A stretch of DNA of 64,000 nucleotides from Minisyncoccota bacterium (GCA_031413715.1 JANOFO010000007.1:90338-154337); one strand, 5' to 3'; positions 12,903 through 30,044 are shown, numbered from the stretch's first letter. Made by a program: numbers and translations. Notes: generated by a model from the sequence alone, not told the origin.

Positions 12903-12905
12903 AAT

Positions 12906-14487: not shown

Positions 14488-14593
14488 AACTCTCTTTTGT
14501 CAAAAAATGGAGGTGTAGCCTTTTTATAAATTTCTGCTATTATGTACCTACAAAAGATATATTATTAAAAGCAGTAATTCACCTATCATAAAT

Positions 14594-15766
14594 ATGGCTA
14601 AAATCACCACAGACGTTGAATCTTTCGCTCGAATCAAGGTTATTGGAATCGGCGGATCAGGCAAGAACGCCCTCAATCACATGATAAGTTGCAAAGTCAA
14701 AGGAGTCGAGTTTATCGTTATGAATACCGATACTCAGGACCTCCATAACTCCTTCGCTGAAAAGAAAGTCCACCTTGGCAAGAACCTTACCAAGGGTCTT
14801 GGCGCAGGTATGAACCCTGAAATCGGCAAGCGTGCAGCCGAAGAAACAAAGGCAGAGATCCAGGATGTCATCAAAGGCGCAGATATGGTTTTCATCGCAT
14901 GTGGAATGGGTGGAGGTACAGGAACAGGAGCAGCTCCTATTGTTGCTCAGGCTGCTAAAGAACAAGGCATACTTACTGTTGCTGTTGTAACAAAACCTTT
15001 CTCTTTCGAAGGTAACCAGCGCATGAAACTCGCCGATGAAGGATTGGCGCTTCTTGAACATGAAGTAGATGCAATTTTAGTAATTCCAAATGACAGACTT
15101 ATCATTATCTCTGGCAAAGAGGTAGGTTTCCGTGAAGCATTTGCGATGTGCGATGAAGTTTTGAAGCAAGCAGTTGAGGGAATTTCGGAACTAATTACTA
15201 CTCCAGGCATGGTGAATGTTGACTTTGCTGATATTCGTGCAGTCATGCACGATGCAGGTTCAGCACTGATGGGCGTAGGTATCGCAGCTGGCGATGGCCG
15301 TGCTGAAAAAGCAGCTCTAGCTGCTATCAACTCGCCTCTTCTTGACCTTTCTATCTCTGGTGCAAAAGGCGTACTCTTTGCAATATCCGGCGGTGATGAT
15401 CTGACAATTCATGAGATAAGTGAAGCCGCAAAAGTAATTACAGAATCCATAGACAAAGATGCAAAAGTCATTTTCGGTACTATCCGCGACGAGAAGCTTA
15501 AAAAAGGTGAGATGAAAGTTACCGTCATTGCCACCGGTTTCCCTACCGACATGCCACGTCGTTCACTTTTTCAGAGTCAAGCTCGTACAGGTGATCAAAC
15601 TATAGCCACAGCAACAAAAGAAGATATCATCCAAGCAGTCACGAAGGAAACAGGAAAAGACTCTGACTATATAAAAAAGACCGGCAAAGAAAAAGAGGAT
15701 GATCTATTCATAGATGATACAGATGACTGGAGCACTGTTCCAGCATTCTTGAGACGTAAAAAATAG
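14594..15766 (+). CDS. ftsZ: cell division GTPase FtsZ
   Basis: GIGGSGKNALNHM and the GMGGGTGTGAAP tubulin signature. Confidence 0.95.
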   Translation: MAKITTDVESFARIKVIGIGGSGKNALNHMISCKVKGVEFIVMNTDTQDLHNSFAEKKVHLGKNLTKGLGAGMNPEIGKRAAEETKAEIQDVIKGADMVFIACGMGGGTGTGAAPIVAQAAKEQGILTVAVVTKPFSFEGNQRMKLADEGLALLEHEVDAILVIPNDRLIIISGKEVGFREAFAMCDEVLKQAVEGISELITTPGMVNVDFADIRAVMHDAGSALMGVGIAAGDGRAEKAALAAINSPLLDLSISGAKGVLFAISGGDDLTIHEISEAAKVITESIDKDAKVIFGTIRDEKLKKGEMKVTVIATGFPTDMPRRSLFQSQARTGDQTIATATKEDIIQAVTKETGKDSDYIKKTGKEKEDDLFIDDTDDWSTVPAFLRRKK

Positions 15767-15773
15767 TATAAGC

Positions 15774-15885
15774 AAAATCAAAAATAGTCATCTTGTAGGA
15801 CACGCATATTTTTCTGTTGAAAAATTGCTCTGCTCGCGCCAGTCGCGCTTGTGCAAGTTCCTACAAGATGACTATTTTTGATTTT
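15774..15885. repeat. perfect 27-bp inverted repeat around a 58-nt loop, between ftsZ and trxB
   Basis: aaaatcaaaaatagtcatcttgtagga at 15774..15800 is the exact reverse complement of 15859..15885. Confidence 0.8.
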
Positions 15886-15896
15886 TAGTATAAAAT

Positions 15897-16850
15897 GTGA
15901 CAATGTACGATTTAATTATCTTGGGTGGCGGACCGGCTGGTACTGCAGCAAGTGTTTACGCTGCTCGTAAACAATTAAAAACTGCCTTGATCACCAGTGA
16001 ATTCGGCGGCCAATCTGTGGTATCCGAACTTATCTACAACTGGATTGGAACGCCCGAAATATCTGGCAAAGACCTTGGAGAGAATTTGAAAAAACACGCC
16101 CTTTACTACAAGGGGGCATTTCTTGATGTCATAGAAGGAGAAAAGATTACCAAAGTAGAAAAGAAAGATAAAGTTATTACTATTACTACAGAATCTGGAA
16201 AGACATACGATACTATGACATTACTCGTTGCTACAGGAAGTGGCAGGCGTAAGCTCGATGTCACAAACGCTGAAAAATTTGAAAACAAAGGGATCACCTA
16301 CTGTGCATCATGCGATGGTCCCCTTTTTGCAGATCAAGATGTTCTTGTCATTGGCGGAGGCAATGCCGGCTTTGAGACGGCGGCACAGCTCTTGGCATAT
16401 TGTAAAAGCGTGACGATGGTTCATCGAAGTGCAGATTTCAGAGCAGATGAGATCACAGTCAAAAAAATATTTGAGAATCCGAAATTCAAAGCGATTACCA
16501 ATGCAGAAATAACGGAAGTAAATAGCCTGCCCGTGCAGGCAGGTGATCCTCAATTTGTAAGCTCTCTTACCTATAAAGATAAGATTTCTGGAGGGTTAGT
16601 GACCATACCGACAACTGGTATATTCGTCGAAATTGGTCAGATCCCTAATACAGATTTTATGAAAGGAATTGTGGATATCGACTCGTTTGGTAAAATCGTT
16701 GTAGACCCTATGACCCAGATGACTAAGACCCCTGGCATCTGGGCAGCTGGAGACTGTACTAATGGCAGATACCATCAGAATAACATAGCAGCCGGCGACG
16801 CGGTAAAAGCACTAGAAGATCTCTATATCTGGGTGCATAAGAATAAGTAA
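15897..16850 (+). CDS. trxB: thioredoxin-disulfide reductase
   Basis: LIILGGGPAGTAASVYAAR FAD motif, CASCDG redox CxxC and GGGNAGFE NADPH motif. The track start is a GTG; the ATG at 15903 is likely. Confidence 0.9.
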   Translation: MTMYDLIILGGGPAGTAASVYAARKQLKTALITSEFGGQSVVSELIYNWIGTPEISGKDLGENLKKHALYYKGAFLDVIEGEKITKVEKKDKVITITTESGKTYDTMTLLVATGSGRRKLDVTNAEKFENKGITYCASCDGPLFADQDVLVIGGGNAGFETAAQLLAYCKSVTMVHRSADFRADEITVKKIFENPKFKAITNAEITEVNSLPVQAGDPQFVSSLTYKDKISGGLVTIPTTGIFVEIGQIPNTDFMKGIVDIDSFGKIVVDPMTQMTKTPGIWAAGDCTNGRYHQNNIAAGDAVKALEDLYIWVHKNK

Positions 16851-17597
16851 TTACTTATTTACTATTGTTTCAAGTCTTTCTAATTCTTCAATTGTATTCA
16901 CTCCAAGAGCTTCTTCTGGACTTATAGCAACAGATGCAATACTTTTCTCAGCGGCTGCATGCTCTACGAGATCTGTTAGATAGTACTCACTTTGTGCATT
17001 TTCGTTTTTTAGTTTTGCCAAGTGTTCAAAGAGCCATTTCTTTTCGAAACAAAAATAGCATGGATTTACTTCCTTCAATTCTTTTTCAAATTCGCTCGCA
17101 TCTTTGAATTCTACGCTACGGACAATTTTCCCATCTTCTGCACGAACAATCCGACTAAACGGTTTATAAAAAACTTGGTACCAATCATCGAACGATGGTA
17201 CCGTAACAGTCGCCATTGTAAGTGAGCAATTACTTTTGGCGTGAACAGCTATCAGGTTTGCAATCATAGCGCCTGTAACCGCAGGAGCATCGCCATAGAG
17301 CACGAGTATATGTTCCACAGACTCGGGAATACTTCCTTCAGTAACTCTTACGGCATGACCAGTGCCAAGTTGTTCTTCTTGAACTACATAAGTCGCTTCA
17401 GTTCCCAAGTGATTTATAATTTCTTCTTTTTTATATCCGACGACAAGAATAGGTTTTCCTACAACACCACTATGTTTAACTGCTTGCATGAGATAGTCAA
17501 TTATCGGCTTACCATTAAAAAGCACTAGCGCTTTTGGCATCTCAATATTCATTCTTTTTCCTTGCCCACCGGCCAGTATTAGGATTTGGGTATTCAT
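16851..17597 (-). CDS. sugar-1-phosphate nucleotidyltransferase (GlmU N-terminal-like domain only)
   Basis: ILILAGGQGKRM...MPKALVLFNGKPIIDY...QEEQLGTGHAV matches the GlmU/NTP-transferase N-terminal signature; 248 aa, so no acetyltransferase domain. Confidence 0.7.
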   Translation of the reverse strand: MNTQILILAGGQGKRMNIEMPKALVLFNGKPIIDYLMQAVKHSGVVGKPILVVGYKKEEIINHLGTEATYVVQEEQLGTGHAVRVTEGSIPESVEHILVLYGDAPAVTGAMIANLIAVHAKSNCSLTMATVTVPSFDDWYQVFYKPFSRIVRAEDGKIVRSVEFKDASEFEKELKEVNPCYFCFEKKWLFEHLAKLKNENAQSEYYLTDLVEHAAAEKSIASVAISPEEALGVNTIEELERLETIVNK

Positions 17598-17617
17598 AAA
17601 GTGTAATTAATTTTTTG

Positions 17618-17690
17618 TGCGCGATAGAGGAGTCGAACCTCTGACCTACCCCACGTCAAGGGGTCGCTCTACCAACTGAGCTAACCGCGC
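17618..17690 (-). tRNA. tRNA-Val (anticodon GAC)
   Basis: The reverse complement folds as a 73-nt cloverleaf GCGCGGTTAGCTCAGTTGGTAGAGCGACCCCTTGACGTGGGGT...TTCGACT...ATCGCGCA with anticodon loop TTGACGT. Confidence 0.85.
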
Positions 17691-17698
17691 ATTGCTTG

Positions 17699-17785
17699 CG
17701 GAAGCGGTGAGATTTGAACTCACGAGAAGTTTTCACCCCTGCCGCTTTTCGAGAGCGGTGCCTTCAACCACTCAGCCACGCTTCC
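17699..17785 (-). tRNA. tRNA-Ser (anticodon CGA), long variable arm
   Basis: The reverse complement is GGAAGCGTGGCTGAGTGGTTGAAGGCACCGCTCTCGAAAAGCGG...GTGAGTTCAAATCTCACCGCTTCCG. The anticodon loop CTCGAAA and a class II variable arm fit Ser. Confidence 0.8.
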
Positions 17786-17893
17786 GCCCGCCATTATACA
17801 GAATTGGAACTATATTATCAATAATCGTCGGAGCTTGTTAAAACTACAGAAATAGTGTAATCTACAGTTTAATTCGCAATTGGTGTATCTAAA

Positions 17894-17945
17894 AAAGGGC
17901 ACAGTGTTTTTCCTGGACAAGTACCAAGAGTGCCCTTTTTAAAAA
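17894..17945. terminator. bidirectional rho-independent terminator
   Basis: aaaaaagggcac...gtgccctttttaaaaaa: an 8-bp GC-containing stem flanked by an A-run and a T-run, 3' of the minus CDS 18054..18515 and 5' of the tRNA pair. Confidence 0.5.
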
Positions 17946-18053
17946 ATTTGATCTTTTAGTTTTCTCTGAGCCAATAAAAACGATTACCGTCTTCATAACA
18001 GGGTATATCGTTACCTCTCCAGATTCTGGAGAGGTTTTTTTATTGGAAGAGCA

Positions 18054-18515
18054 TTATTGAGATCCTGGCTTTTTTAAATCAGCAATTTGGAGTGGGCTTT
18101 GAATCTGAGGCGGTGTCATATCTATTTCTCCGAATTGCCTCTCATAATTTTTGATCTGACCATCTATCCATATAGCAATACTCTTCATCTGCTGGGGAGT
18201 AGCAGCAAAAGAGTCGAGGCTGTTGCCAGAAGTTATAGCAAAGGAAAAGAATTCCTTGCCATATGCTCCAATAGCTCCATCGCAGAACTTCTTGGGCAGT
18301 TGATTCATGTCTATTTTTGTTGGGTCAATCATGAATGTAATTATAGCATTAAAAACGATGAGGTAATAATAATTCCCTCTTTGATATCCGAAAGCTAAGT
18401 CACCCGATTGAACAGTTAGGCTATTTGGTAATATTCCAGAGGTGTGACCATTGTATAATCTAACATATTTCATATATCTTTTGCGATTTTTCCAAAAATG
18501 AAGTAATATAGGCAT
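18054..18515 (-). CDS. hypothetical protein
   Basis: 153-aa ORF with no recognised motif. Confidence 0.4.
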   Translation of the reverse strand: MPILLHFWKNRKRYMKYVRLYNGHTSGILPNSLTVQSGDLAFGYQRGNYYYLIVFNAIITFMIDPTKIDMNQLPKKFCDGAIGAYGKEFFSFAITSGNSLDSFAATPQQMKSIAIWIDGQIKNYERQFGEIDMTPPQIQSPLQIADLKKPGSQ

Positions 18516-18622
18516 TACTGGCCCTATATCGTCTAGCCTAGTTAGAATGTAGTGGATGTGGGCTTTTCAAACCGTAACAGGTAGCACAGTTGAAAATTAT
18601 TATGTTATTGTAGTTTAGTTAT

Positions 18623-18697
18623 GGCCCTATCGTCTAACGGTTAGGACATCGGCTTTTCAAGCCGGTAATCCGGGTTCGATTCCCGGTAGGGTCACCA
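18623..18697 (+). tRNA. tRNA-Glu (anticodon TTC), CCA encoded
   Basis: GGCCCTATCGTCTAACGGTTAGGACATCGGCTTTTCAAGCCGGTAATCCGGGTTCGATTCCCGGTAGGGTCACCA with anticodon loop TTTTCAA. Confidence 0.85.
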
Positions 18698-20309
18698 AAC
18701 GATTCACTTCATCCATAAATTCAGGTTCTATGTTGTAAACACAACATAATTCAGGAGTTTTAATAGTTGGATAGTGATAATAGAGATTGGAAGGAAAAAG
18801 TAGGGTTCTTAAAACTCTAAGGTCTTTCACATAGATGTCTTCCCAAATTTCAGGAAGATGCTTTAGAAATTCAACCCCTGTATCAACAACCCTATCTATT
18901 TCAAGTTCAGGAGAGGACAACTCACTCAAATCTTTTTGTAATTGCAATATTTCTATTTTGCACTTTTCATTTGCTGGTAAAAAGTCTTCATCTGATATCT
19001 TTGTTTCAAGTCTTAGATTTAGCAACTTATCTTTCTTGTCTCTTATTTCTGCAATCCTCATGTTAATTTTCTTTTCCGAGGTAGTAATAGAATTCAATTC
19101 ATTTTTATGAGCAAGTTTAATTGCCTCTTTGAGAACATCAAAGTGCTTATCATCAGGGGTCATCTTTGTAAGAAATTCAGTAAACTCTTCTTCCATATCT
19201 TTCTTTGGTATAGCAGTCCTCTTAGGACAATCACCACAAAAACAGCCATAATACTGGTAGTACTTGGTTTTACCTTTTGTCTTTCCTCCAGAGATACTCT
19301 TGCCACAACCACTGCATTTTATACCCCGCAGGGGATAGTCAGGACTATCCCTATTACGAGCTAACTTTCTTCCAGCCACACCTCTTTTATTACCACTACC
19401 ATTAGCTTCATTAAAGAGTTCAACAGAAATTATTGGTTTATGGCTACCTTCAACATCAACACCAAATTTTTGAACCACAATTCTGCCACAGTAAATTGGG
19501 TTTTTAAGGATTTTAGCGACTAGTTGCTTGCTTATTTTCATACCATGCCTACTTTTTTGTCCGCACTTATTTGCCAATCCTGCCAATTCCTTACAACTAT
19601 ATTTTCCCGTGATATGCTTCTCAAAAATCATTTTTATCACTGGTGCTCTTTCTGAGTGAGGAATAATAATTTTGTTGCCTAATTTATCTTTTGTATTTAC
19701 ATATCCCCAAGGAGCACCATTAGGCCATAAACCTTTGAGTGCTCTTGCTTTCATTCCTTCACCAGTTCTTTGAGACCTGACATCATTATCAAACTGAGCA
19801 AAGGCAGCCAGCATTGTTTCTTGCAATTTACCGCTAGGACTATCATCAAAAGCCTCTGTTACAGAAACTAAAGAGATATTTAATTTTTTAAGAAAGCTTC
19901 TAAATGCAAGATGTTCACCAGCGTTTCTGAAAAATCTATCAACTTTGTATATGACAACTCTGTCAATTTGTTTTTTGTTCTTATCACAGAACCTCAGCAT
20001 TTCCTGAAATCTTGTTCTGTTTTCCGTCTTCGCACTCTCTCCCTCTTCTCTAAATACTTTTAAGACAGTATGTTCAGTTCTTTTAGAGAATTCTCTGGAG
20101 AACTTTTCTTGATTGTCTAAGCTAAAATTCTCAACTTGTTCTTTTGATGACACACGCACATAGATGACATCATTTTTAGGTTTTTCTATTTTAGGTTTTA
20201 TTTTCATAAATTTGTTATTAGTTAATTTAAACTCTTTTCCCAAAAATCTCAAAATGTTTGTTCTGGAATTAAAGAGCTTATTGTTCTTGTAATTTGGTTT
20301 GCACGGCAA
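18657..20309 (-). CDS. large serine recombinase (integrase)
   Basis: VIYVRVSSKEQ catalytic-Ser motif, a recombinase domain, a zinc ribbon CSGCGK...YYGCFCGDCPK and a C-terminal coiled coil. The likely true start is the ATG at 20207 (MKIKPK...). The 3' end overlaps tRNA-Glu. Confidence 0.9.
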   Translation of the reverse strand: MPCKPNYKNNKLFNSRTNILRFLGKEFKLTNNKFMKIKPKIEKPKNDVIYVRVSSKEQVENFSLDNQEKFSREFSKRTEHTVLKVFREEGESAKTENRTRFQEMLRFCDKNKKQIDRVVIYKVDRFFRNAGEHLAFRSFLKKLNISLVSVTEAFDDSPSGKLQETMLAAFAQFDNDVRSQRTGEGMKARALKGLWPNGAPWGYVNTKDKLGNKIIIPHSERAPVIKMIFEKHITGKYSCKELAGLANKCGQKSRHGMKISKQLVAKILKNPIYCGRIVVQKFGVDVEGSHKPIISVELFNEANGSGNKRGVAGRKLARNRDSPDYPLRGIKCSGCGKSISGGKTKGKTKYYQYYGCFCGDCPKRTAIPKKDMEEEFTEFLTKMTPDDKHFDVLKEAIKLAHKNELNSITTSEKKINMRIAEIRDKKDKLLNLRLETKISDEDFLPANEKCKIEILQLQKDLSELSSPELEIDRVVDTGVEFLKHLPEIWEDIYVKDLRVLRTLLFPSNLYYHYPTIKTPELCCVYNIEPEFMDEVNRLVTLPGIEPGLPA

Positions 20310-20319
20310 ATAGCCACAT

Positions 20320-20526
20320 TTATGGGGAATTACCTGCTGACGCTAGTAAATCCTCCGCATTCTGTGGTTTTGGTGGTTTAAAGTGCTGTTTAATCTGTAG
20401 CCTGACGAGGAATAAAGCCAGTTCATATAGATTTTTGGCAGTTTTCTCTAAATCCTGTTCTGGAACTTTTGAATTGATTCTTTTCAGGTGTTCTATTATT
20501 TTTTGGACTTCTTCTGTGTTAAACAT
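20320..20526 (-). CDS. small hypothetical protein immediately upstream of the recombinase (candidate accessory or directionality factor)
   Basis: 68-aa ORF on the same strand, 11 bp from the recombinase track start; no motif recognised. Confidence 0.3.
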   Translation of the reverse strand: MFNTEEVQKIIEHLKRINSKVPEQDLEKTAKNLYELALFLVRLQIKQHFKPPKPQNAEDLLASAGNSP

Positions 20527-20598
20527 AAAAAATCCCCTGTTGGGGACTTCTTGAAGTCTATACTTTGAGTTTCTTTTAAGGTCCTAACTCATCCTAAT

Positions 20599-21327
20599 TC
20601 AGTAGTTTCTAAACACTGCTGGTTCTTGTTGGCGAAACAAGGATTGATTTATACCTTTTATTTTTAACTTCCTATTCAAATTAGCTACCAAATTTGAAAT
20701 TGATTTTTTCTCCCTCCCTCCCATTTTAGTATATTCATCTTTTTCACCTTTAATTGTTTCCCAGATATCACCATAGCTAACAGGTATTTTAGGTTTTGGT
20801 TTAAACATGATTTCACAGAAATAAGAATAATTTGTATTTGGATAAATCTTTAATTTTCTTTTACCAATAATAATTTCATTGTTTATATAATATGACTTTA
20901 GGTTAGATTTATAAATGCCTATATTTAATAATGTTTCAGTTTTTTTTAAAAATAATTTCCAGTTATATATTTCCAAAATCAATGAATCTTCATCATCTTC
21001 CAAGTAAACTCCTGAAACAGGGTTGATATCTTCTTTGGTCTGGGATACAATTTCATCCCCAATTTTAGTAATTGTTCCATTTAGAATATTTATCCATATT
21101 GACTCAGGATTAACTTCCCCTATATTCTGGTTTAGATATTGAATAAAATGCCTTGCCTCAGCTTTATTAATAGAAGATTCTTTTAGAGTATCAAAAGGTA
21201 TTTTCACTACCAAAGGCTCTTGTGTTGGAAATAGTACAGACTGTTCTTGAATCATTTTAAGCAACAGAGCTATTTGCTCTTCTTGGTGTAGGGTCAAGCT
21301 ATTTTCTTTCATACTTAAATAATACAT
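20599..21327 (-). CDS. hypothetical protein (element cargo)
   Basis: 242-aa ORF in AT-rich cargo; no motif recognised. Confidence 0.4.
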   Translation of the reverse strand: MYYLSMKENSLTLHQEEQIALLLKMIQEQSVLFPTQEPLVVKIPFDTLKESSINKAEARHFIQYLNQNIGEVNPESIWINILNGTITKIGDEIVSQTKEDINPVSGVYLEDDEDSLILEIYNWKLFLKKTETLLNIGIYKSNLKSYYINNEIIIGKRKLKIYPNTNYSYFCEIMFKPKPKIPVSYGDIWETIKGEKDEYTKMGGREKKSISNLVANLNRKLKIKGINQSLFRQQEPAVFRNY

Positions 21328-21589
21328 ACAAAAAGCAATAAAACAAAGCTTCTTTGATTTTTAGGTAAATAGAGGTAAAATGAAAGCATAATTTAATATA
21401 TAAAGTAGCCTAAACCTTTAGAAATAGAGGCATGGTGAAAAAACCAGTCAAGCATAAAGAACCTATCATATAGGGTTGCCTTGACTGGTCATATCTGGAA
21501 ACGGATATGGGGAGCGAAAGCTCTCACCTATGTGGTAGGCTTTTTGCGTCTTACCATGGGCTTATTATTAAAACGCAGAAAGAATCTTT

Positions 21590-22201
21590 ATGAAAAAATA
21601 TATTACAATTTTATTTTTAGCAGTATTAATAACCCCTTCAATTACTTTTGCTTCTTGGTGGAATCCTTTTTCTTGGTCAAAAGATTCCAAACAAGCTATA
21701 GATGTTATTGAGCCAACATTAATTCAAGCAACTGATAAATCCACCTCAGTAATTGAAACAAAACCTAAAGAAATTAAAGTTATTGAAAAAATAGTAGAGA
21801 AGCCAGTTATTCAGACTATTTCAGTTCAAGACCCTGCTTTACAGAAACGGATTAAACAACTGGAGTTAGAAAACCAAGAACTTAAATTACAGATAGAAAA
21901 ACTAAAGGCTTTACAACAACAAGTGCAAACACAAAAAGAAGAGATTGAATCATTAAAAAGTGTACCAGTCTTTTCAAAAGATAAAGAATGTGAGGAAGCA
22001 AAAGAATTCATTAATTCTACTGGTGAAAAAGTAACTGATTTAAGAGAACGGCAAGCAAAGGAAATTGCTGATTATATGAAGAACGGAATAAAATTGCAAA
22101 AAGACATAGACGCAATAAAAAATAAGTACCGTACAGAAGGAAGCCAAATTGACAAAAAAATCAAATCAGCTAAAGATAAAATTCAACTTTATTGTGATTA
22201 G
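21590..22201 (+). CDS. secreted coiled-coil protein
   Basis: Signal peptide MKKYITILFLAVLITPSITFASW, then a charged, Gln/Lys/Glu-rich coiled-coil-like region. Confidence 0.5.
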   Translation: MKKYITILFLAVLITPSITFASWWNPFSWSKDSKQAIDVIEPTLIQATDKSTSVIETKPKEIKVIEKIVEKPVIQTISVQDPALQKRIKQLELENQELKLQIEKLKALQQQVQTQKEEIESLKSVPVFSKDKECEEAKEFINSTGEKVTDLRERQAKEIADYMKNGIKLQKDIDAIKNKYRTEGSQIDKKIKSAKDKIQLYCD

Positions 22202-22235
22202 AAACTGTTGATTCTATCTAATTCTATCTACTTTT

Positions 22236-22552
22236 AAAAGACCCCTGAAAAGTGTTAAATAAACCAAATTAACCTAATTTAAAAAGACCTCAAAAAGTGT
22301 GTATTAAGCAAATTAAGCGAAATCTTTTTTGCTACTAAAACTTGGTATATATACCTAAATTAACCTAATTCTAGGATATTCCTCTAAACTGCTTATTTTA
22401 CAAATTTACCAAAATCATTTCTGGTCTCTAAAAGTGGTATTTATAGCAAATATAGCAAATCTCTTTTTGGGTCTGAAAAGTGTTAATTATATCAGTCTAA
22501 TCAGAATTTCTCTGGTGTCCAAAACTGCGAATTATATCAAAAGTATCAAACC
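22236..22552. repeat. about six degenerate direct repeats, 45 to 50 bp period, iteron-like
   Basis: Units share a core GGTCTnnAAAAGTGnTAnnTATAnC, for example gacccctgaaaagtgttaaataaacc, ggtctctaaaagtggtatttatagc, ggtctgaaaagtgttaattatatc and ggtgtccaaaactgcgaattatatc. They lie directly upstream of the CDS starting at 22590. Confidence 0.5.
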
Positions 22553-22589
22553 TTAAATTGGACTTTTAAATAGGCTTTATTGGTGTATA

Positions 22590-24107
22590 ATGCAAATTAT
22601 GTCTTCATACATTAAATCAATAAAAATTACTGAATTTGAAGGAGCTTTAGACCAGACTCTGGAATTTGAAGCGGGCTTAAATATCTTGAGCGGAGAAAAT
22701 GGAACTGGTAAAACAACGGTATTAAAGAAAATTAAAGAATTTGCAGGAGGTAATAATAGCAATTTAACTTTACTTTCTGACATTTCAGATATAACACTAC
22801 CAAACCAACTCAGTATTTACGCTCTTAGCCCAAAGAGAAATTCAGAAAAGAAGACTATAAATAATACTTTTTCACATCTCCGTTCTATAAGCAAAACGAT
22901 GGATACGCAGCTTGAGGAATTAAGAAATAGAGCAATTAACGATAATACTTTTGAAGCATATCCATCATTTGGAGAGTTATTTATTTTATATTTTGATGAA
23001 AAATGCAAAGACGGTGGAGAGCAAATTGGAAAGATGAATGAGGTAACTACTGAATTTAATAATCTTATACAAAAGGTTTTTCCTGAGTACTCCTTTGTTT
23101 CAAGTTGGGATTCCGTGTCTGGAAGACCAGATATAAACCTTAAAATCAGCAACCGCTCTCCCCTTAGTTTAGATAAATTAAGTTGTGGACAACAGGAAGT
23201 TCTGTCTTTGATATTTAACATTTATACTTCAAAGGGAAAATATAATATCTATTTAATTGATGAGCCTGAAATACATTTAAACTGGAACTTAGAAAAAGGA
23301 TTATTCCAATTTTTGGATTGGTTCTGTGTAAATCACAATAAGCAAATTATTACAGTTACTCACTCACGTACTATCTTTGAAGAACCATTTTATGAAAAGG
23401 CGAAGTTTTTGGTTTGGGAAGATGTAGTTATAAAATATCAAAGTGATATTTCTGATGCTCAGCGTGAAGCTATTGTAGGAGAATTAGCAGCAACCATAAA
23501 TGTTGTTGCTCCTACTTCTAAGACTTTCTTTGTTGAAGATAAAATGCATGAATTTGTTATTGATACTATTGCTCAAAAGCTAGGTAAAGTAATCTCAACA
23601 GTTAAGTGTGGAAACTCTGCAAATGTAAAAAGTTTCTATGGACTATCAAAAGATAAAAGTAGTGCTTGGAAAGAACATGGCTATTATGTTGTTGATGGAG
23701 ACAATGAGGGTAATCCTTTTCCAGGAGAACCAAGGTTTATCCACTTAAATAAATATTCCATTGATTCATATATATTTAACTTAGAGTTGCTTTCTGAGGT
23801 TCTAAATAAGACAGTTGAAGTTATACAAACAGAGATATTGTCTGTAATGCAGACAAAGAAATTAGCTATTTTTTCAAAAGGTAAAAATGCAAAATTTGGA
23901 CATGCATTGATAGACAAAATGACAAGCGATTACATAACAGAAGCACATTTGGCACTTGTAGATTGCACAGAAATTTTAGAAGGCTTTGCTCAATTACAAG
24001 GTAAATCATCGCAAGACTTGTTTGTAGAATATATTGAAAAGGCAAATCAAAAAGGAACATTGAATAGTATTTTTGACTCAGAACTTATTGACGTAATAAA
24101 TGCTTAA
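22590..24107 (+). CDS. OLD-family / PARIS-like ABC ATPase fused to a TOPRIM-like (DUF4435-like) C-terminal domain
   Basis: Walker A LSGENGTGKTT, ABC signature-like LSCGQQ, Walker B/D-loop IYLIDEPEIHLN and H-loop ITVTHS. The C-terminal FFVEDKMHEF...YVVDGDNEG fits a TOPRIM Glu followed by a DxD motif. Confidence 0.6.
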   Translation: MQIMSSYIKSIKITEFEGALDQTLEFEAGLNILSGENGTGKTTVLKKIKEFAGGNNSNLTLLSDISDITLPNQLSIYALSPKRNSEKKTINNTFSHLRSISKTMDTQLEELRNRAINDNTFEAYPSFGELFILYFDEKCKDGGEQIGKMNEVTTEFNNLIQKVFPEYSFVSSWDSVSGRPDINLKISNRSPLSLDKLSCGQQEVLSLIFNIYTSKGKYNIYLIDEPEIHLNWNLEKGLFQFLDWFCVNHNKQIITVTHSRTIFEEPFYEKAKFLVWEDVVIKYQSDISDAQREAIVGELAATINVVAPTSKTFFVEDKMHEFVIDTIAQKLGKVISTVKCGNSANVKSFYGLSKDKSSAWKEHGYYVVDGDNEGNPFPGEPRFIHLNKYSIDSYIFNLELLSEVLNKTVEVIQTEILSVMQTKKLAIFSKGKNAKFGHALIDKMTSDYITEAHLALVDCTEILEGFAQLQGKSSQDLFVEYIEKANQKGTLNSIFDSELIDVINA

Positions 24108-24158
24108 GGATGAATTCTCTAGATGTTTCTTTATGTAAAATTATGGTAAAATACAAAG

Positions 24159-24872
24159 ATGGAAACAGCAAGCCCTATTATAGTGGTTAGTACAGCAATT
24201 CTTACAAGCTTTTTTACATATTTTTTTACTTTCAATCAATACATAAAACAACGGCAAAGAGAAGAAGTAAGAAAAACATATATTGAAGATGGTATAGGTA
24301 GAGTAATGCAAGTCACAGAATCAGTTTCTCAGGCTTGTTATTTTAACTTTACAAAAGTAATTAGTGCACTAGATATTCTAGAAAGAAATTTTGGAGGGAA
24401 AGAGATTGAAAAAGAAATTTTAAATAATATTTTTCTGGAAATGCAAGATGTAAAAGTTGCCCCAGATTATGGAAATCTAAAATTGGCAATTTTTGATAAC
24501 CAAACCCTTATTATATGGGTAATTCAATCTTGGGCAGAATATCAAAAACTAAACGAATATCTAAGGCATTATATATTTCAAGAATTTAAAGCATACTTAA
24601 ATGATTCAACTTTATCCGAAGATAAGAGAAAAGAATTTTTGATTAAATTGAGAGAACAAGTTCGCAATCATTGGAACAGAGTAATTAACAACAATGAAAT
24701 ATTAAGGGGTCAGTTATTGTTACTACAAGTTGAAGCTGATAAAGCAAATATTTCAAATATTCAGGAGATAGATAACCTAGCAAAGAAAGAAGGGGTTTTA
24801 AAAGTTTTAAAAGCCATAGAAGATGGATATAAAAAAATTAAAGATAATCCAGTAGATATTACAACACTTTAA
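24159..24872 (+). CDS. hypothetical membrane-anchored protein downstream of the ATPase
   Basis: 237-aa ORF with an N-terminal TM helix, 52 bp after the ATPase stop on the same strand. Confidence 0.4.
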   Translation: METASPIIVVSTAILTSFFTYFFTFNQYIKQRQREEVRKTYIEDGIGRVMQVTESVSQACYFNFTKVISALDILERNFGGKEIEKEILNNIFLEMQDVKVAPDYGNLKLAIFDNQTLIIWVIQSWAEYQKLNEYLRHYIFQEFKAYLNDSTLSEDKRKEFLIKLREQVRNHWNRVINNNEILRGQLLLLQVEADKANISNIQEIDNLAKKEGVLKVLKAIEDGYKKIKDNPVDITTL

Positions 24873-25036
24873 AATTCAACTTCTAATTCCTAACATTTAA
24901 ATACCATTAAGGGAAGAGACTGGAAGTAGTTCTTGTTGGATAACCCTGTAATTTAAAGGTTTTTCAAAGTTAGAGATTATCTTTTCCAGCTCCTTAAAGA
25001 AGTTTACATAGGGTTTTGAGTCTGGTATCATTAAGG

Positions 25037-25085
25037 TCACACATACTTAAAAATCTGCACTGCTGCAGGTTTTTAAGTATGTGTG
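25037..25085. terminator. perfect 17-bp-stem hairpin between convergent genes
   Basis: tcacacatacttaaaaa ... tttttaagtatgtgtga around a 15-nt loop containing ctgcag palindromes. Confidence 0.4.
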
Positions 25086-25254
25086 AAAACGCAGGTATAA
25101 TTTTTCAGAAGAAAAATTGCCGAGTTGGGGTCGCGAGTACTTACGTAGAATTTGAGCAAAGCGAAAATTATACTTAGTAACTTGTGACCACATAGATTAG
25201 TACCTGTAAGGTTCGATAAGCGTACTCGCGGTCCCCATAGCTCACAAAGAAATT

Positions 25255-26394
25255 TTATTTACTATTTAACCCTCCAAAAGATGGGAAGTTGTGTACGTCG
25301 TAATCTTTTCTTATGTTTCGAAGATGTAATTTAATCGCCTTGTTATAGGTAAAACTTTTATCAAGAAGCAATTTTGCACCTTTAACGATTTCTGGAATCT
25401 TTTTTTCAATAAGATCATCTGCAACACAAGCCACTCTTTTACCCTCTCTCAAGAGCCTGTCACATTCTTTGGTTCTATTATCAAGAGAGGGGTATGAATT
25501 ACACTTAGGAAGAACCGAGTAAAATGGAACATCATTTAGGAAATATAATGGCCAACGACAGGTAGCAATTTCTAACCATGGCGTATCAACAAGAAAAGCA
25601 AGAAATGCAAAACCAGTATGTGGGGAAAGAAATATATCGCATTTTTCTATTAACGCTATCTGATTCCATAGACCGATATTGTATGCAGACTCCGCATTTT
25701 TAAGATGCTTGACCAAATAGTCTATATCATTCAAAGTAAAATCTTTTGTGAAAGTTCTATGATGGTCACTTTTGGTGATACCCGTAAAGTAAATTTTAAG
25801 ATTTGGTATTGCCTTTTCTAATGCCAAACAGATTTTAAGCCACATTTCAACAGACGGACTTTGCCTTAATCCTTTAGCGCCTCCAAGCATGATTACAACT
25901 GTAGGGCCACGATGCTTAAACTTCTTTGTGAATGTTTTTGCTTTTGTTGGAATAGGAAGGGTAATTTTTTGATTTGATACAGCCGGTAGAATACTACCTT
26001 CATTGTCTCCGTTTTGCTTAACATAGCCCTTTGCAATCTTGGCAACAAATATTTTATGTAACACTTCTTGAGTTTTTACTAACTCTGGTCTGTCGCTTAC
26101 TTTTACCAGTCGACCCGCTCGATTATCAGTACTTATATAATCCCAATTTTTGGGAATCCTTTGAAGACATTTTGCCTTTTCTCCGTCCTTGAAAACCTCA
26201 TCCGTTGAAATGGAATATGTTTTCTTAATCCATGGACATGCGTCTGCGAGTTCTGTCGGCGTATTAGCATTGAGCAACAAATATACATCAAGATTTTTGT
26301 TAGCGAGCGAATAACCCTTGGCAAGTTTTAATGCTTCAACTGCGTGCCCGACGGGTGGGTAGTATACCCAGTTAAGGAGTAGTTTTTTCTTCAT
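25255..26394 (-). CDS. glycosyltransferase family 9 (heptosyltransferase-like)
   Basis: VVIMLGGAKGLRQSPSVEMWLKICLAL and CDIFLSPHTGFAFLAFLVDTPWLEI resemble GT9 C-terminal motifs (KrWP...; DSGpmHlAaAlg.P). Confidence 0.55.
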   Translation of the reverse strand: MKKKLLLNWVYYPPVGHAVEALKLAKGYSLANKNLDVYLLLNANTPTELADACPWIKKTYSISTDEVFKDGEKAKCLQRIPKNWDYISTDNRAGRLVKVSDRPELVKTQEVLHKIFVAKIAKGYVKQNGDNEGSILPAVSNQKITLPIPTKAKTFTKKFKHRGPTVVIMLGGAKGLRQSPSVEMWLKICLALEKAIPNLKIYFTGITKSDHHRTFTKDFTLNDIDYLVKHLKNAESAYNIGLWNQIALIEKCDIFLSPHTGFAFLAFLVDTPWLEIATCRWPLYFLNDVPFYSVLPKCNSYPSLDNRTKECDRLLREGKRVACVADDLIEKKIPEIVKGAKLLLDKSFTYNKAIKLHLRNIRKDYDVHNFPSFGGLNSK

Positions 26395-26732
26395 GAGACA
26401 ATTATATCAAATCATGCGTATTTATCTTAGTTGTAAAATTGTGATAATTCTGATCTATGAGATAAAAATGTGAAAATACGCTTATACTACCAATAATCGG
26501 GTTCCAATTTGCACTAATATTAGGATCACAGATTTTAGCTTATATTATATAGCTCTATTCAAGTCGAAAGGCCTTGACTTTTGGGCTTATTTATGCTATT
26601 GTTCAAAGATAGGAGTGGATCTTTAACAAAATTTGTTTTCGAGATTGTTGCGAGAGTAGTTTTCGGCTTCCCTTTTTGCGAAGGTTAGAGCTACTCTCGT
26701 AAACAATCAAATTAAAAACAAAAAATAAACTT

Positions 26733-27236
26733 ATGACACCTGCAACAACTCCAGCTACAACAACTGGAACACCTACTCATCATGCAGCAGTACCTGCAAC
26801 CCCTGACAAAAAAAGTTATGGAGGCCTTGTGCTACTAATGGTAGTAATTGTAATTTTAATTATTATTTTACAATCAATACCTGGTAAAAAAACGACCAGG
26901 AGAGATACTCTGAAAAAACAACTTACTACTGTAGTACAACAAACATTTGATACCTATCCCCCAATTGATCCTCAAACCTTTGAGATCAATGGATCATTTT
27001 CAGAAAAGAAAATAATCCGGGACGGATATTATGTATCATTTGTATGTAATCAGCCGTATCAGATACGGAAAAGTAATGATAAATTAGTGGAAAGCGAAGC
27101 AAATAAATCTGCAAACATTGGTCTGTATAAGGCCGAGGAATCAATCGAAAATTCGCTTCTTGAATTCCGCACATTAAATGATGCGACCACAACAATGACA
27201 CTCATTTTCACACCGATGAAAATCAAAAAACACTAA
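26733..27236 (+). CDS. hypothetical membrane protein (Thr/Pro-rich N-terminus, one TM)
   Basis: MTPATTPATTTGTPTHH..., then the hydrophobic helix LVLLMVVIVILIIIL. Confidence 0.4.
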   Translation: MTPATTPATTTGTPTHHAAVPATPDKKSYGGLVLLMVVIVILIIILQSIPGKKTTRRDTLKKQLTTVVQQTFDTYPPIDPQTFEINGSFSEKKIIRDGYYVSFVCNQPYQIRKSNDKLVESEANKSANIGLYKAEESIENSLLEFRTLNDATTTMTLIFTPMKIKKH

Positions 27237-27241
27237 GAATT

Positions 27242-28111
27242 ATGAAAAAATTAGCCAAAGAGATAGTTTTCCATAAATGGAGTAACTATCTGACAGCAGT
27301 TTTGATATCATTCCTGCTGTTTATAATCCTGTACTTCGTCCTGTACGGAAGGATACAGAGTAAAATTGAAACAACTCATATAGTAGATCTCGTAGCTTTC
27401 TTTGGACTCCTTGCTGTAAGCATTGGAGCAGTATATGGATCAAAGCTAATTTCTCCACCGAGGAGAAAGAGGCATCTCATTGACATTTTCGGTGAAGAAA
27501 CTGAAGTGTGGATCACCGGAACAACCCGGTTCGGCTTTTATCTTTTCCATTTCGATATTGGTAGCCAGACAATTAGTGTTGAAGAAGATGAAATAATCGT
27601 TACCACTATTTGCGCCGATAGAAAAGGCAAACTAATAGAGATGAGATTAAGCGGCGTATGGAGAGTAGGTAAACATAACTGGCAAATGACTAACTTCAAA
27701 AAATTAGATGAGAATAGACAAGAGAATGAAGTAATTTTCAGTAACATGCTTGACAGAGCCAATGTTAGGCTGGGAGGAAGGAAAGAATTCTGGTCTCAGA
27801 TTCATGGAAAAGATTTACACAAGAGTATCCTCAACGATCCTATTTTCGTGGAGGATAAAAATGACTACGGCATAGAATTCCCATCACTATCATTGACTGT
27901 CAAATCAGCCGATCAAGCTACCGACAATTTCAACGCTCAGTATGATCGTGAGCTGGCGAAGTATATGTCCAAATACCCAATAGGTTACAAATTTACTCAC
28001 AAAGAATTAAAAGAAGCGAGTGATTTGATATTTGCTAAATTGGGTCGAGCTAAAATGCTTATTGTCAGAGGCGGAGCTATCGTACGAACTGATGCTGATG
28101 CATTGATGTAA
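27242..28111 (+). CDS. hypothetical membrane protein
   Basis: 289-aa ORF with two N-terminal TM helices; a 5-bp gap after the upstream ORF suggests an operon. Confidence 0.4.
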   Translation: MKKLAKEIVFHKWSNYLTAVLISFLLFIILYFVLYGRIQSKIETTHIVDLVAFFGLLAVSIGAVYGSKLISPPRRKRHLIDIFGEETEVWITGTTRFGFYLFHFDIGSQTISVEEDEIIVTTICADRKGKLIEMRLSGVWRVGKHNWQMTNFKKLDENRQENEVIFSNMLDRANVRLGGRKEFWSQIHGKDLHKSILNDPIFVEDKNDYGIEFPSLSLTVKSADQATDNFNAQYDRELAKYMSKYPIGYKFTHKELKEASDLIFAKLGRAKMLIVRGGAIVRTDADALM

Positions 28112-28140
28112 ATTAATTTGATCTTTTAGAGTTATAAAAT

Positions 28141-28178
28141 AAAGAAGCGCACGGTCTTACCGCAAGCGCTTCTTTTTT
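28141..28178. terminator. bidirectional rho-independent terminator between convergent genes
   Basis: aaagaagcgcacggtcttaccgcaagcgcttcttttttat: a GC-rich stem with an A-run 5' and a T-run 3'. Confidence 0.6.
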
Positions 28179-28186
28179 ATATCCAC

Positions 28187-29374: not shown

Positions 29375-29615
29375 AGAGTCCGATAAGACCCTGGATGATC
29401 ATGCCGCGGGCTTTCTTTTTTTTCTCCTCATCGGTTGAAAGAGTGTATTGTATGACACCCCAGATAAAATAGACGACGGCAAGAGTAATGAGTACAGGAA
29501 TTATTCTGTTTAGAATATTAGCTGTAGTACTGATAATATCGAAAAATGTTACCGCTGAAACACTGAGTGGGGCTATGACAGCTGTTATAGCACCGATTGA
29601 AATGAATTTCTTCAT
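29247..29615 (-). CDS. pilin-like two-helix module protein; paralog 2
   Basis: ...IIPVLITLAVVYFIWGVIQYTLSTDEEKKKKARGMIIQGLIGLFVILAFWG... Confidence 0.5.
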   Translation of the reverse strand: MKKFISIGAITAVIAPLSVSAVTFFDIISTTANILNRIIPVLITLAVVYFIWGVIQYTLSTDEEKKKKARGMIIQGLIGLFVILAFWGIIAVFQSTFGVTGARVNQSDIPCVPIPSAGILCP

Positions 29616-29741
29616 GATAAATTATCTATAATAATAACGACTTTTTAATAATATTCATTGAACCCGCGACCGCAGGCAATGATAGGAACACACTGTTTTA
29701 CATGATTATTATATCACAAATGAGCCCTAAATTAGCAAGCT

Positions 29742-30038
29742 TTACTGAGAAAGCTGTGGAATAAGAGTTTTGATGCCAAAGGTGCTCGTAAGAACACCGA
29801 CCAGCCCCCAAATACTTATCATGACAAATAAGGCTATCAACCCCCAGATCATAAAACTCTTGCCTTTCTTGCGCTTTTCTTCATTGTCAGGATTCAGGAA
29901 ATACTGGATAATCCCCCATATGAATCCGGCAACGGCAAGCGTCAAAAGAAGAGGGATTATTGATTGGACGAGCGTACAGCTGGCCCAGTTGAAGATATTA
30001 CCCAAGGTGTTTAAATCAATTGTTTGGCAGTCTTTCAT
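29742..30038 (-). CDS. pilin-like two-helix module protein; paralog 3
   Basis: ...IIPLLLTLAVAGFIWGIIQYFLNPDNEEKRKKGKSFMIWGLIALFVMISIWG... Confidence 0.5.
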   Translation of the reverse strand: MKDCQTIDLNTLGNIFNWASCTLVQSIIPLLLTLAVAGFIWGIIQYFLNPDNEEKRKKGKSFMIWGLIALFVMISIWGLVGVLTSTFGIKTLIPQLSQ

Positions 30039-30044
30039 AATATA

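Follow-up and report, generated by a model that had tools for sequence, protein, structure and literature searches.

What does a large serine recombinase (LSR) do at a tRNA gene into which its own reading frame runs, and where does the DNA that accompanies it end? The question arises in a stretch of 64,000 nt from a Minisyncoccota bacterium (GCA_031413715.1 JANOFO010000007.1:90338-154337), referred to here in its full length as the window. A preliminary description had seen here an element integrated at tRNA-Glu by a serine recombinase, with AT-rich cargo of foreign origin and an LSR ending inside the tRNA, and both points hold: the LSR open reading frame (ORF) at 18657..20207 (minus strand) overlaps the tRNA by 41 nt, and the GC content at 20-25 kb is 0.29-0.32 against ~0.41 in the flanks. 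Most likely, window positions 18696..25040 are a 6.3-kb integrative element inserted by the LSR at the tRNA-Glu 3′ end. Two of its features had been missed, namely that the recombinase gene spans attP and that a LOOT RNA is part of the element.

tRNA-Glu and the Attachment Sites

The integration target, tRNA-Glu(TTC) at 18623..18697 (plus strand; ARAGORN; Rfam tRNA, 65.5 bits), forms the B arm of attL. The attL core, GGTCAC at 18690..18695, takes in the final four bases of the acceptor stem, the discriminator base, and the C that opens CCA; the same hexamer is present at attR, and Logan contig L008 ends exactly at 18695. The attR core at 25035..25040, where the tRNA 3′-end core recurs beside a conserved far-end segment, is the right end of the element. 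The two cores are identical and only 6 bp long, whereas in classical islands the far boundary carries a direct repeat of ~15-50 nt from the tRNA 3′ end; no such repeat is present here, GGTCAC alone being shared. Neither a search of both strands of the window with ≤3 mismatches in 28 nt nor local alignment, which stayed within noise, turned up a long copy of the tRNA 3′ end. The preliminary description was therefore correct that no clean repeat is present as far as a long one is concerned, but it overlooked the short core, and the alignment of the tRNA 3′ half with mismatches that it proposed brought no degenerate attR to light in the window.

The predicted crossover dinucleotide is TC (18692-18693). 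On the window plus strand, the predicted attB junction is CCGGGTTCGATTCCCGGTAGGGTCACACATACTTAAAAATCTGCACTGC and the predicted attP junction is GTCTGGTATCATTAAGGTCACCAAACGATTCACTTCATCCATAAATTC. The reconstructed attP is a quasi-palindrome, AATCGTT..GTGACC..AACGATT, with its dyad centered on GT[GA]CC and a maximum symmetry score of 0.39 (background, about 0.25). Inverted arms of 7-8 bp surround the non-palindromic central GA both in the reconstructed attP and in the real attP of contig L007, as expected for serine integrase sites, and attP × attB integration by the LSR is the predicted reaction.

The Recombinase Gene and Its Detached 3′ End

In its integrated, truncated form, the LSR comprises 516 aa from an ATG, and 550 aa from an upstream TTG start, to 20309 (minus strand). 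It matches Pfam Resolvase (PF00239, E = 5e-31) and Recombinase (PF07508, E = 5e-14), as well as Zn_ribbon_recom (PF13408) with 18 bits, which is under the cut-off of 25.3 for that family, and a PHROG integrase (E = 3e-85); it has >1200 homologs. The Y-x-R-V-S motif, the R/E/D residues, and four cysteines are invariant in 25 homologs, and the window LSR is full length with these catalytic and zinc-binding residues kept. An AlphaFold model of the homolog P0014 (pLDDT 85) contains beta hairpins and a long helical hairpin at residues 348-425. The sole recombinase in the element is of the serine type, and no tyrosine integrase was found there. The stop codon, TGA (18657-59), lies within the tRNA anticodon loop; the C-terminal residues LVTLPGIEPGLPA are encoded by the antisense of the tRNA 3′ half, from which the final nine residues, following VTL, derive.

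The missing 3′ end of the gene was found at the other end of the element. Minus-strand translation of 24897..25040, which is also the P arm of attR, carries on the LSR reading frame for 47 codons and a stop (VTLMIPDSKPYVNFF..., VTLMIPDSKPYVNFFKELEKIISNFEKP...) and matches the C-terminal extension of the longer homolog P0014. This homolog is encoded on contig L007, in which the LSR body and the tail are contiguous, in frame, and free of any tRNA. Since the tail continues the LSR frame and the two are fused in L007, attP lies inside the LSR gene, and integration trades a 44-residue tail for nine antisense-tRNA residues. Window positions 24902..25041 are conserved at the distal end of related elements, terminating in the tRNA 3′-end hexamer, and the tail region has 80-82% nucleotide identity with the far end of the L002, L005, and L017 elements. 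When every stop-to-stop fragment on both strands of all loci was searched with a tail HMM (E = 5e-24 for the window tail), all hits with E<0.01 lay upstream of the LSR on the same strand, the sole exception being the in-frame tail of L007. The split form is found in the window and about 30 loci. The fused form of L109 belongs to a chromosomal contig of 67 kb, and fused forms may therefore represent tandem-array junctions rather than free circles; L007 itself has no terminal overlap, and its end-to-start junction does not complete a LOOT RNA.

We propose the following mechanism. With attP, the phage-type site, inside its own reading frame, the recombinase gene of the unintegrated or tandem form would read ...NRLVTL-MIPDSKPYVNFF...NGI and encode about 551 aa. 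The LSR would insert the element at the tRNA-Glu 3′ end by recombining sites that have only a 6-bp core (GGTCAC, tRNA sense) in common, with crossover predicted at TC. The first 507 codons would then adjoin the tRNA, and the frame would continue through the antisense T arm to the stop in the anticodon loop, giving the protein end PGIEPGLPA, while the last 44 codons would be moved to the opposite end, at attR. Integration would leave the tRNA intact, and the long LSR would return upon excision. Exchange of the C terminus may change the activity, stability, or directionality of the recombinase, an effect of the kind shown by phage Mx8 for a tyrosine integrase. A bolder and doubtful possibility is that the swap acts as a built-in switch between a long circle-encoded and a short chromosome-encoded protein differing in stability or directionality, with LOOT serving the element as its regulatory or maintenance RNA.

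Conserved Core and Cargo

In order, the conserved core comprises the divergently transcribed LOOT RNA, a 68-aa protein, and the LSR, and the remainder is exchangeable cargo. The 68-aa helical protein (20320..20526, minus strand) is encoded directly upstream of the LSR and has homologs at the same position in 17 type-1 loci, with a second family in 5 type-2 loci; it had no match in Pfam, PHROG, or PADLOC, and is a candidate regulator or directionality factor. The LOOT RNA (Rfam RF03000; 21407..21525, plus strand) scored 89.8 bits against a gathering score of 46.4 over model positions 1-121. It is directed away from the recombinase operon at the head of the cargo genes, and its position and orientation are alike in L001, L002, L005, and >20 further Patescibacteria loci. 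The RNA and the 68-residue protein belong to the conserved core in Patescibacteria. We considered LOOT as a guide RNA for the att sites and rejected this role, the longest identical or complementary runs being equal to those of shuffled controls (15 loci, mean z = -0.06). In the literature, LOOT is named in an RNA-structure-prediction paper, and the main text of its discovery paper is silent on it. A promoter and terminator scan gave counts no higher than the shuffled expectation.

Between the 68-aa protein and LOOT, a 242-aa protein (20599..21327, minus strand) is encoded in only a subset of related elements (L001, L002, L009, and L017) and is missing from many others; 5 homologs were found. 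It has no family match in Pfam, PADLOC, or PHROG, and its AlphaFold model (pLDDT 57) has no Foldseek match with E<0.1. Downstream of LOOT, a 203-aa protein (21590..22201, plus strand) has coiled-coil-like sequence and an N-terminal hydrophobic segment that looks signal-like by eye, and its family matches are all subthreshold. The iteron-like repeats of the preliminary description are real: four copies of a 19-mer (AAAAGTGTTAATTATATCA-like) lie at 22248..22539 in a 390-nt intergenic region, for which conservation amounts to 84-86% in L001 and L009, the closest elements. None of the element proteins matched a Rep family in Pfam, PADLOC, or PHROG, and the array lacks the neighboring Rep initiator of a plasmid replicon. 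The gene earlier called OLD-like (22590..24107, plus strand) does encode an ABC-type ATPase, with Pfam matches to AAA_15 (E = 1e-16), AAA_21, and SMC_N, but its best match is to the PADLOC model of the fused PARIS protein AriAB (E = 1e-29; AriA, E = 4e-21), spanning model positions 264-537 of 694, and neither a Toprim domain nor DUF4435 was detected with Pfam. Homology makes this fused AriAB- or OLD-like ATPase a candidate anti-phage defense gene. The last cargo gene (24159..24872, plus strand) encodes a 237-aa protein with an N-terminal hydrophobic helix, judged by eye, and no match among Pfam, PADLOC, and PHROG families.

Related Loci, an Empty Site, and Assemblies

Overlap of the LSR frame with an antisense tRNA is found in 61 of 80 loci and extends over 22-84 nt depending on the tRNA (65 nt for tRNA-Lys). 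In 18 loci, attL and attR have a core in common that follows the acceptor stem of the tRNA concerned (among them GTGACCC, GTAGCCC, GTCCCC, GTGCGCC, and CGGCCC), core length being 6-10 bp across loci. A search anchored on each tRNA's own 8-mer located tails in Verrucomicrobiota, Acidobacteriota, and Nitrospira loci. The split-integrase design is recurrent across many bacterial phyla, usually together with LOOT. Only 5 distant relatives were found in viral contigs, indicating that the family is not mainly phage-borne. At tRNA-Asn, a second recombinase gene also has its stop codon within the anticodon loop, and a core-anchored search for its far end gave no convincing tail.

Among close relatives, recombinases 72-91% identical are found beside different host genes (RmuC in L001 and L002, a deaminase gene in L005). 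An unoccupied tRNA-Glu, which the preliminary description had proposed looking for, is present in L090 (about 80% protein identity): synteny holds on either side of this locus, from which the entire segment is absent, with 2 kb where the window has 9.6 kb, so there is insertion polymorphism at this tRNA. The refuting condition set in the preliminary description, identical gene order in relatives without such polymorphism, therefore does not apply. The element itself was found in Logan contig L108. When run SRR20217197 was assembled independently, the assembly broke exactly at 18695 with a k-1 overlap; its graph has no break at attR and another break at 25140-25155. The break at 18695 fits an empty site but is suggestive only, and it could also stem from another genome with the same tRNA 30-mer. 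Exact-protein look-ups of the recombinase and the ATPase returned no match because the gene calls used other start codons.

Sequences Flanking the Element

Upstream of tRNA-Glu, the preliminary description had noted a fragment resembling the anticodon arm. The resemblance is genuine, GGCTTTTCAAACCG (18561..18574) agreeing with the arm at 13 of 14 positions against a chance expectation of 0.07 matches per window, but it is a part of something larger: alignment to tRNA-Glu reveals a whole degenerate pseudo-tRNA-Glu at about 18520..18591 (plus strand), which is not part of the element and lies to the side of tRNA-Glu opposite to the crossover. Its 5′ acceptor and D stem match throughout (16 of 16 positions) but for a 2-nt insertion; the T arm has been lost, and GGTAG..CAC remains at the 3′ end. 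The suggested origin as an att-derived relic does not fit the window element, since a crossover at the tRNA 3′ end leaves debris downstream only, and the decayed copy retains the ancestral upstream flank of tRNA-Glu, as in L005 and L009.

On the opposite side, a hairpin (25037..25086; 23-nt arms, 96% complementary) had been proposed as the right end. It starts within attR and so nearly marks the right place, but it is flank (B′) sequence immediately outside attR rather than a recombination site, and would directly follow the tRNA in the empty site; similar hairpins adjoin attR in L011, L015, L045, and L054. The inverted repeat at 25127..25242, the other proposed end, closes a fold of -42.9 kcal/mol (z = -4.0) and lies beyond the true end at attR. 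The variable region reaches about 28 kb; among the older debris in it is a weak type-2 tail relic near 26.5 kb, and additional tail relics occur in L015, L023, and L064.

Alternative Explanations

The geometry of the locus at first suggests a classical tRNA replacement, in which crossover in or near the anticodon loop would have supplied a new tRNA 3′ half overlapping the recombinase gene and displaced the original half rightward. The recombinase stops in the anticodon loop both here and at tRNA-Asn, and a copy of the anticodon arm is nearby. That copy, however, is part of the upstream pseudo-tRNA, and a displaced 3′ half, even a degenerate one, was found nowhere in the window by mismatch search and local alignment on both strands. 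The acceptor 3′ end is where both the shared core and the conserved far end map, and because the stop falls at different positions in different tRNAs, its location in the anticodon loop is a consequence of the reading frame. We regard replacement as highly improbable. It is also unlikely, if less strikingly so, that the element is fixed in place as a remnant, with a recombinase that has ceased to excise and a detached tail that is a fossil. No excision product (the attB or attP junction of the window element itself) was seen, the assembly graph is unbranched at attR, and the element is located in a larger variable region with older debris such as the type-2 tail relic. Against a fixed remnant stand the full-length recombinase with its invariant residues intact, a tail frame open for 47 codons, identical attL and attR cores, the 72-91% identical recombinases beside different host genes, and the absence of the element from L090. 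We infer that the element is still active.

A further possibility concerns the tail alone: the far-end segment may be conserved only as a DNA-binding site (the P arm), the 516-aa form being the working recombinase and the tail never a meaningful protein. The first ~25 bp past the core must bind recombinase, and the strongest motifs (TAACGAT and AATTGGAAC) fall within that span, so protein binding by the P arm, not coding, must account for part of the conservation. The tail is also predicted to be disordered (pLDDT <50 in the P0014 model), so its structure offers no clue to function. The conserved stretch and the open frame nevertheless span 130 nt, well past a half-site. The frame in LSR phase is open for 42-49 codons in 12 of 12 loci, the other frames closing within 18 codons, and synonymous change exceeds nonsynonymous change (pS>pN) in 28 of 28 pairs, also with only codons 10 onward counted, although a pN/pS of about 0.5 denotes moderate constraint only. 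At the peptide level, a WNQ..W..L motif is retained from phylum to phylum although the DNA has diverged. Binding-site conservation as the whole explanation is thus quite improbable, and the reading of the tail as the displaced end of the recombinase gene is preferred.

Significance and Comparison with Known Systems

Serine integrases are prized as tools for their short sites and one-way reaction. A clade of >1200 proteins from several phyla that targets the near-universal tRNA 3′ end would widen their known targeting and control, and enzymes that rewrite their own C terminus on integration would likewise broaden recombinase biology. If the swap is indeed a switch, serine integrases would possess self-contained state sensing, and an orphan RNA class would acquire a testable function; in any case, LOOT gains a genomic context as an experimental starting point. 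For host biology, the locus represents a small mobile element of Patescibacteria, often with defense genes. For annotation, the consequence is that gene calls for such recombinases end in tRNA-derived tails while the true, exon-like 3′ piece lies kilobases away.

The LSR resembles the phiC31, Bxb1, and A118/LI integrases in its Resolvase domain with the RVSS serine, its recombinase domain, and its zinc ribbon with a long coiled coil, and shares with serine integrases the short att sites, inverted half-sites around a 2-bp non-palindromic center, and attP beside int. It differs in targeting a tRNA gene 3′ end and in having attP inside the integrase reading frame; to our knowledge, characterized serine integrases have protein-coding or intergenic targets and attP outside int. 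The word tRNA is absent from a large discovery paper on serine integrases. The integrase of Mx8 (intP/intX) has attP within its coding sequence, a tRNA-locus target, and two neighboring attB sites, and integration gives int a new 3′ end and thus a different protein C terminus (PMC6070905). Replacement of the int 3′ end is paralleled here by the fused L007 and the split forms, and the two attB sites recall the tandem tRNA-Glu copies in the window; Mx8, however, is a ~50-kb phage with a tyrosine recombinase, whereas here a serine recombinase is found in a 4-10 kb element without recognizable phage genes.

Tycheposons are small cargo-carrying elements at tRNA genes that push older debris away from the tRNA and leave partial tRNAs as repeats, with tyrosine recombinases in 910 of 937 tycheposons and cryptic elements (10.1101/2020.12.28.424599). 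The position of the window element at a tRNA, the variable region to about 28 kb, and the tail relics in L015, L023, and L064 are similar, but the repeat here is only 6-10 bp and the recombinase is of the serine type. SSV1-type integrases, tyrosine recombinases of archaea, likewise carry attP inside int, where it matches a tRNA gene in part; their gene is split on integration, which disrupts the enzyme body. The split here takes off only the 44-residue C-terminal tail and leaves the catalytic, recombinase, and zinc-ribbon domains in one piece. In mycobacteriophages BPs and Brujita, which encode tyrosine integrases, attP lies inside the repressor gene, and integration removes a C-terminal segment and alters protein stability; here, the gene that is cut is that of the integrase itself. 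The LOOT motif, classed as an sRNA in Rfam, acquires a defined genomic home in the recombinase-element core of Patescibacteria.

The recombinase gene and its overlap with tRNA-Glu

The element at tRNA-Glu carries a minus-strand gene for a large serine recombinase (LSR). The gene begins with an ATG at 20207 and its stop codon is at 18657-59; a mechanical ORF call places the start further upstream, at a TTG (20309). The product matches the Pfam families Resolvase, Recombinase, and, weakly, a zinc-ribbon family, together with a PHROG integrase family. tRNA-Glu(TTC), called by ARAGORN and Rfam at 18623..18697 on the plus strand, overlaps the gene by 41 nt: the last LSR residues (LVTLPGIEPGLPA) are the antisense of the tRNA acceptor and T arms, and the stop codon falls in the anticodon loop. 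The preliminary description had a serine recombinase ending inside tRNA-Glu, beside AT-rich cargo and without a clean direct repeat of the tRNA 3' end, and these points hold, since the cargo has a GC content of 0.29-0.32 vs. about 0.41 in the flanks, and no second copy of the tRNA 3' half was found anywhere in the window. The window encodes another LSR on the minus strand, at 45084..46727, that shares only 25% identity with the one at tRNA-Glu and overlaps tRNA-Asn (45051..45125) in the same antisense manner, its reading frame closing in the anticodon loop. When the far end belonging to this second LSR was sought with the core as anchor, nothing convincing emerged.

A protein search detected more than 1200 LSR relatives at E<=1e-20, mostly in Patescibacteria. 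C-terminal peptides such as VTLPGIEPGL, VTLRGIEPRF, and GFEPV occur in nearly all of the 120 matches listed, these peptides being antisense T arms. The LSR frame runs over an antisense tRNA called by ARAGORN in 61 of 80 evaluable loci, with an overlap of 22-84 nt (mode 41), and T-arm-like tails are also present in most loci outside this set. The target tRNAs are Glu (40 loci), Lys (12), Ala (8), Arg (2), Ile (1), and Val (1), and the phyla represented include Patescibacteria, Acidobacteriota, Verrucomicrobiota, Myxococcota, and Nitrospira.

The attachment site within the recombinase reading frame

Nucleotide comparison with the related elements L002, L005, and L017 identified 24902..25041 as the only common segment beyond the LSR module, located at the far end of each element compared. 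It terminates in ...TTAAGGTCAC; the hexamer GGTCAC likewise forms the 3' end of tRNA-Glu (18690..18695). Minus-strand translation of the segment from GTGACC yields VTLMIPDSKPYVNFFKELEKIISNFEKP... over 47 codons and matches the C-terminal extension of a longer LSR homologue, P0014 (543 aa). In the contig encoding P0014, L007, which lacks a tRNA, an LSR body 72% identical to window 20171..18684 runs directly into this tail. Because the far-end segment matches an extension that is fused to the LSR in L007, we place the element's own site, attP, inside the LSR reading frame. A crossover in the anticodon loop is ruled out by the fused tail and by the identity of the far-end core with the tRNA 3' end, which together put the crossover in the 3' end of the acceptor. 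As judged from sequence, the element is 18696..25040, about 6.3 kb.

Paired attL (tRNA 3' end) and attR (far end) sites were found in 18 loci, with element sizes of 3.8-10.4 kb (n=18) and a common core of 6-10 nt that varies with the tRNA: GTGACCC, GTAGCCC, GTCCCC (Arg), GTGCGCC (Lys), and CGGCCC. Identity between attL and attR is 7.8 of 9 positions within a locus vs. 6.7 between loci, and 7.2 vs. 5.5 for loci with unusual acceptor stems. Reconstruction of attP gives a quasi-palindrome; L007 has a real attP with the sequence GAATCGTT-GG-GTGACC-CT-AACGATTC, and the symmetry score peaks at the centre GT[GA]CC. Such an architecture is expected for serine-integrase sites, and the predicted crossover dinucleotide is TC at 18692-93 and 25037-38.

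HMMs for two tail types were run against all stop-to-stop fragments of both strands in all loci. Matches at E<0.01, from about 30 loci, all lie upstream of the LSR and on its strand, and L007 has the sole in-frame tail. Anchoring the search in each locus on an exact 8-mer from the 3' end of its own tRNA recovered tails with a common xSWNQ(L/I)xxWL motif in Verrucomicrobiota (L028, L034), Acidobacteriota (L050, L064 twice, L070, L077), and Nitrospira (L057). In all 12 loci compared, the detached tail has 42-49 open codons in the LSR phase, whereas each of the other two frames meets a stop within 18 codons. In every one of 28 pairs, pS is higher than pN, including past the first ten codons, and variation is highest at third codon positions. 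Constraint on the tail is moderate, and its AlphaFold structure is a low-confidence prediction.

Another fused, attP-form LSR, P0040, is located at 10001..11599 of L109, a 67-kb chromosomal contig, without a tRNA at the LSR end, which fits a junction between two elements arranged in tandem. Separately, an extra ORF of 126-133 aa lies between a small protein and the full-length LSR in L007 (3978..4361, with Pfam Resolvase recorded), L009 (3582..3962), L013, and L017; tblastn extends the LSR match over this stretch in L009, L013, and L017. The window lacks this ORF.

Conserved RNA, small protein, and cargo

The structured RNA LOOT (Rfam RF03000) is found at 21407..21525 on the plus strand (89.8 bits), in the related loci L001, L002, and L005, and, using a model built in this analysis, in more than 20 further Patescibacteria loci. 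Its location is constant: it is encoded on the strand opposite the LSR, 0.3-2.3 kb upstream of that gene, at the head of the cargo genes. The same model did not detect LOOT in non-Patescibacteria loci of the LSR family. Pairing of LOOT with the att sites was considered and rejected, complementarity being no greater than chance. Directly upstream of the LSR is a helical protein of 60-80 aa without any database match, in two families that match the two tail types; a 242-aa protein is encoded in only a subset of elements.

The cargo here comprises genes for an ATPase, for a 203-aa protein that looks secreted, and for a 237-aa protein whose N terminus has a hydrophobic helix, together with an array of 19-mer repeats, conserved among the closest elements, that accounts for the iteron-like repeats noted earlier. 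The gene previously called OLD-like encodes the ATPase, whose best match is a fused PARIS AriAB (E=1e-29). In related elements, type IIG restriction-modification enzymes or methylases take the place of this cargo. A 14-bp stem closes a 115-nt region at 25127..25242 whose plus-strand fold has an energy of -42.9 kcal/mol (z = -4.0), with a TATAAT box, identified by eye, about 30 nt upstream. Neither Rfam nor any of the loci compared yielded a match to this region, which may be an unrecognized small RNA.

Insertion polymorphism and probable successive integrations

Comparison with an unoccupied tRNA-Glu, as proposed in the preliminary description, was possible with L090, the closest relative with an empty site, a metagenome contig sharing about 80% protein identity with the window. 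Synteny extends up to 17.6 kb and resumes from about 28.3-28.9 kb to 34.2 kb, the near-identical tRNA-Glu of L090 has no insertion at its 3' end, and 2 kb replaces the window's 9.6 kb. The tRNA-Glu of L090 is inverted and adjoins tRNA-Val (11607..11766, reverse-complement coordinates), and tRNA-Ser is missing; there has therefore been local rearrangement between the two lineages. The variable region is bordered by runs of paralogous genes similar to type IV secretion pilins (window 28187..30138; L006/L090), which, with Candidatus Nomurabacteria (L009) as closest named relative, indicate a Patescibacteria host.

The element fills only part of the variable region, which spans 18.7 to about 28.2 kb. 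At about 26465..26528 on the minus strand is a frameshifted relic of a type-2 tail (GTGATCCTAATATTAGTGCAAATTGGAACC), weak (HMM E=0.14) and in the expected orientation, with a core-like GTGATCC followed by AAATTGGAACC; an older, decayed element, 25041..26528, would end here and include a 379-aa gene. Extra tail copies lie in series upstream of one LSR in L064 (6633, 7465), L023 (4718, 6873), and L015 (1686, 3500, 4170), which suggests repeated integrations at the same tRNA. The larger variable region, the relic, and the extra tails thus point to successive integrations that displace older material outward from the tRNA. Three Logan contigs of run SRR20217197 tile the region at 100% identity (8069..18695, 18666..25155, 25140..35455), the first breaking exactly at the core (18695) with a k-1 overlap; because there is no break at attR, these boundaries are only suggestive.

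The decayed tRNA-Glu copy

The degenerate fragment reported upstream of tRNA-Glu is real (chance expectation 0.07 matches per window) but is more than an anticodon arm, forming part of a complete, decayed pseudo-tRNA-Glu at about 18520..18591, with the intact tRNA 31 nt beyond it. Its suggested origin as a relic of integration or an att-derived duplication is not sustained for this element, because crossover at a tRNA 3' end can leave no upstream debris. Since 18476..18535 matches the native upstream flank and first bases of tRNA-Glu in L005 and L009, the decayed copy is in the original position and the intact copy is additional. The pseudo-tRNA is absent from the relatives L094 (occupied) and L090 (empty). 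Tandem duplication of tRNA-Glu followed by decay of the redundant copy would be the simplest reading.

Spacers between tRNA-Ser and tRNA-Glu are only 52-85 nt in L094, L090, L005, L012, and L055, so that ORF153 (18054..18515) is also an insertion; with the pseudo-tRNA it occupies 17786..18622 between the two tRNAs. L009 has two other ORFs and a duplicated tRNA-Glu upstream flank in this interval. Fragments of the tRNA-Glu 5' part (D arm and acceptor strand) in L015 (about 11716..11737) and L025 (about 2322..2343), 72-163 nt upstream of an intact occupied tRNA-Glu, echo the pseudo-tRNA.

Proposed mechanism and comparison with known systems

Alongside the observed site anatomy, split and fused gene forms, recurrence across phyla, and empty site in a relative, we propose that integration at the tRNA 3' end is carried out by the LSR in the form that the fused gene encodes. 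The tRNA would remain intact, the element here supplying the last two bases (CA) of the CCA end, and in the chromosome-encoded LSR a 9-residue tRNA-derived tail would replace 44 residues. Excision would restore the long form, perhaps with the small protein as directionality factor.

A limited literature search, on which priority cannot be claimed, did not reveal any earlier account of a serine integrase whose reading frame contains attP, of an LSR gene overlapping a tRNA in antisense, or of a genomic context for LOOT. Integrations that push older material away from a tRNA have already been described for tycheposons (10.1101/2020.12.28.424599), which the apparently displaced debris in the window's variable region resembles. 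The nearest precedent for the C-terminus swap is phage Mx8, in which attP lies within the integrase gene and the prophage Int has a different C-terminus (PMC6070905), although that enzyme is a tyrosine integrase and the one here a serine integrase. We regard the system as a serine-integrase element whose integrase gene is self-modifying in an Mx8-like way and with which an orphan RNA is associated.
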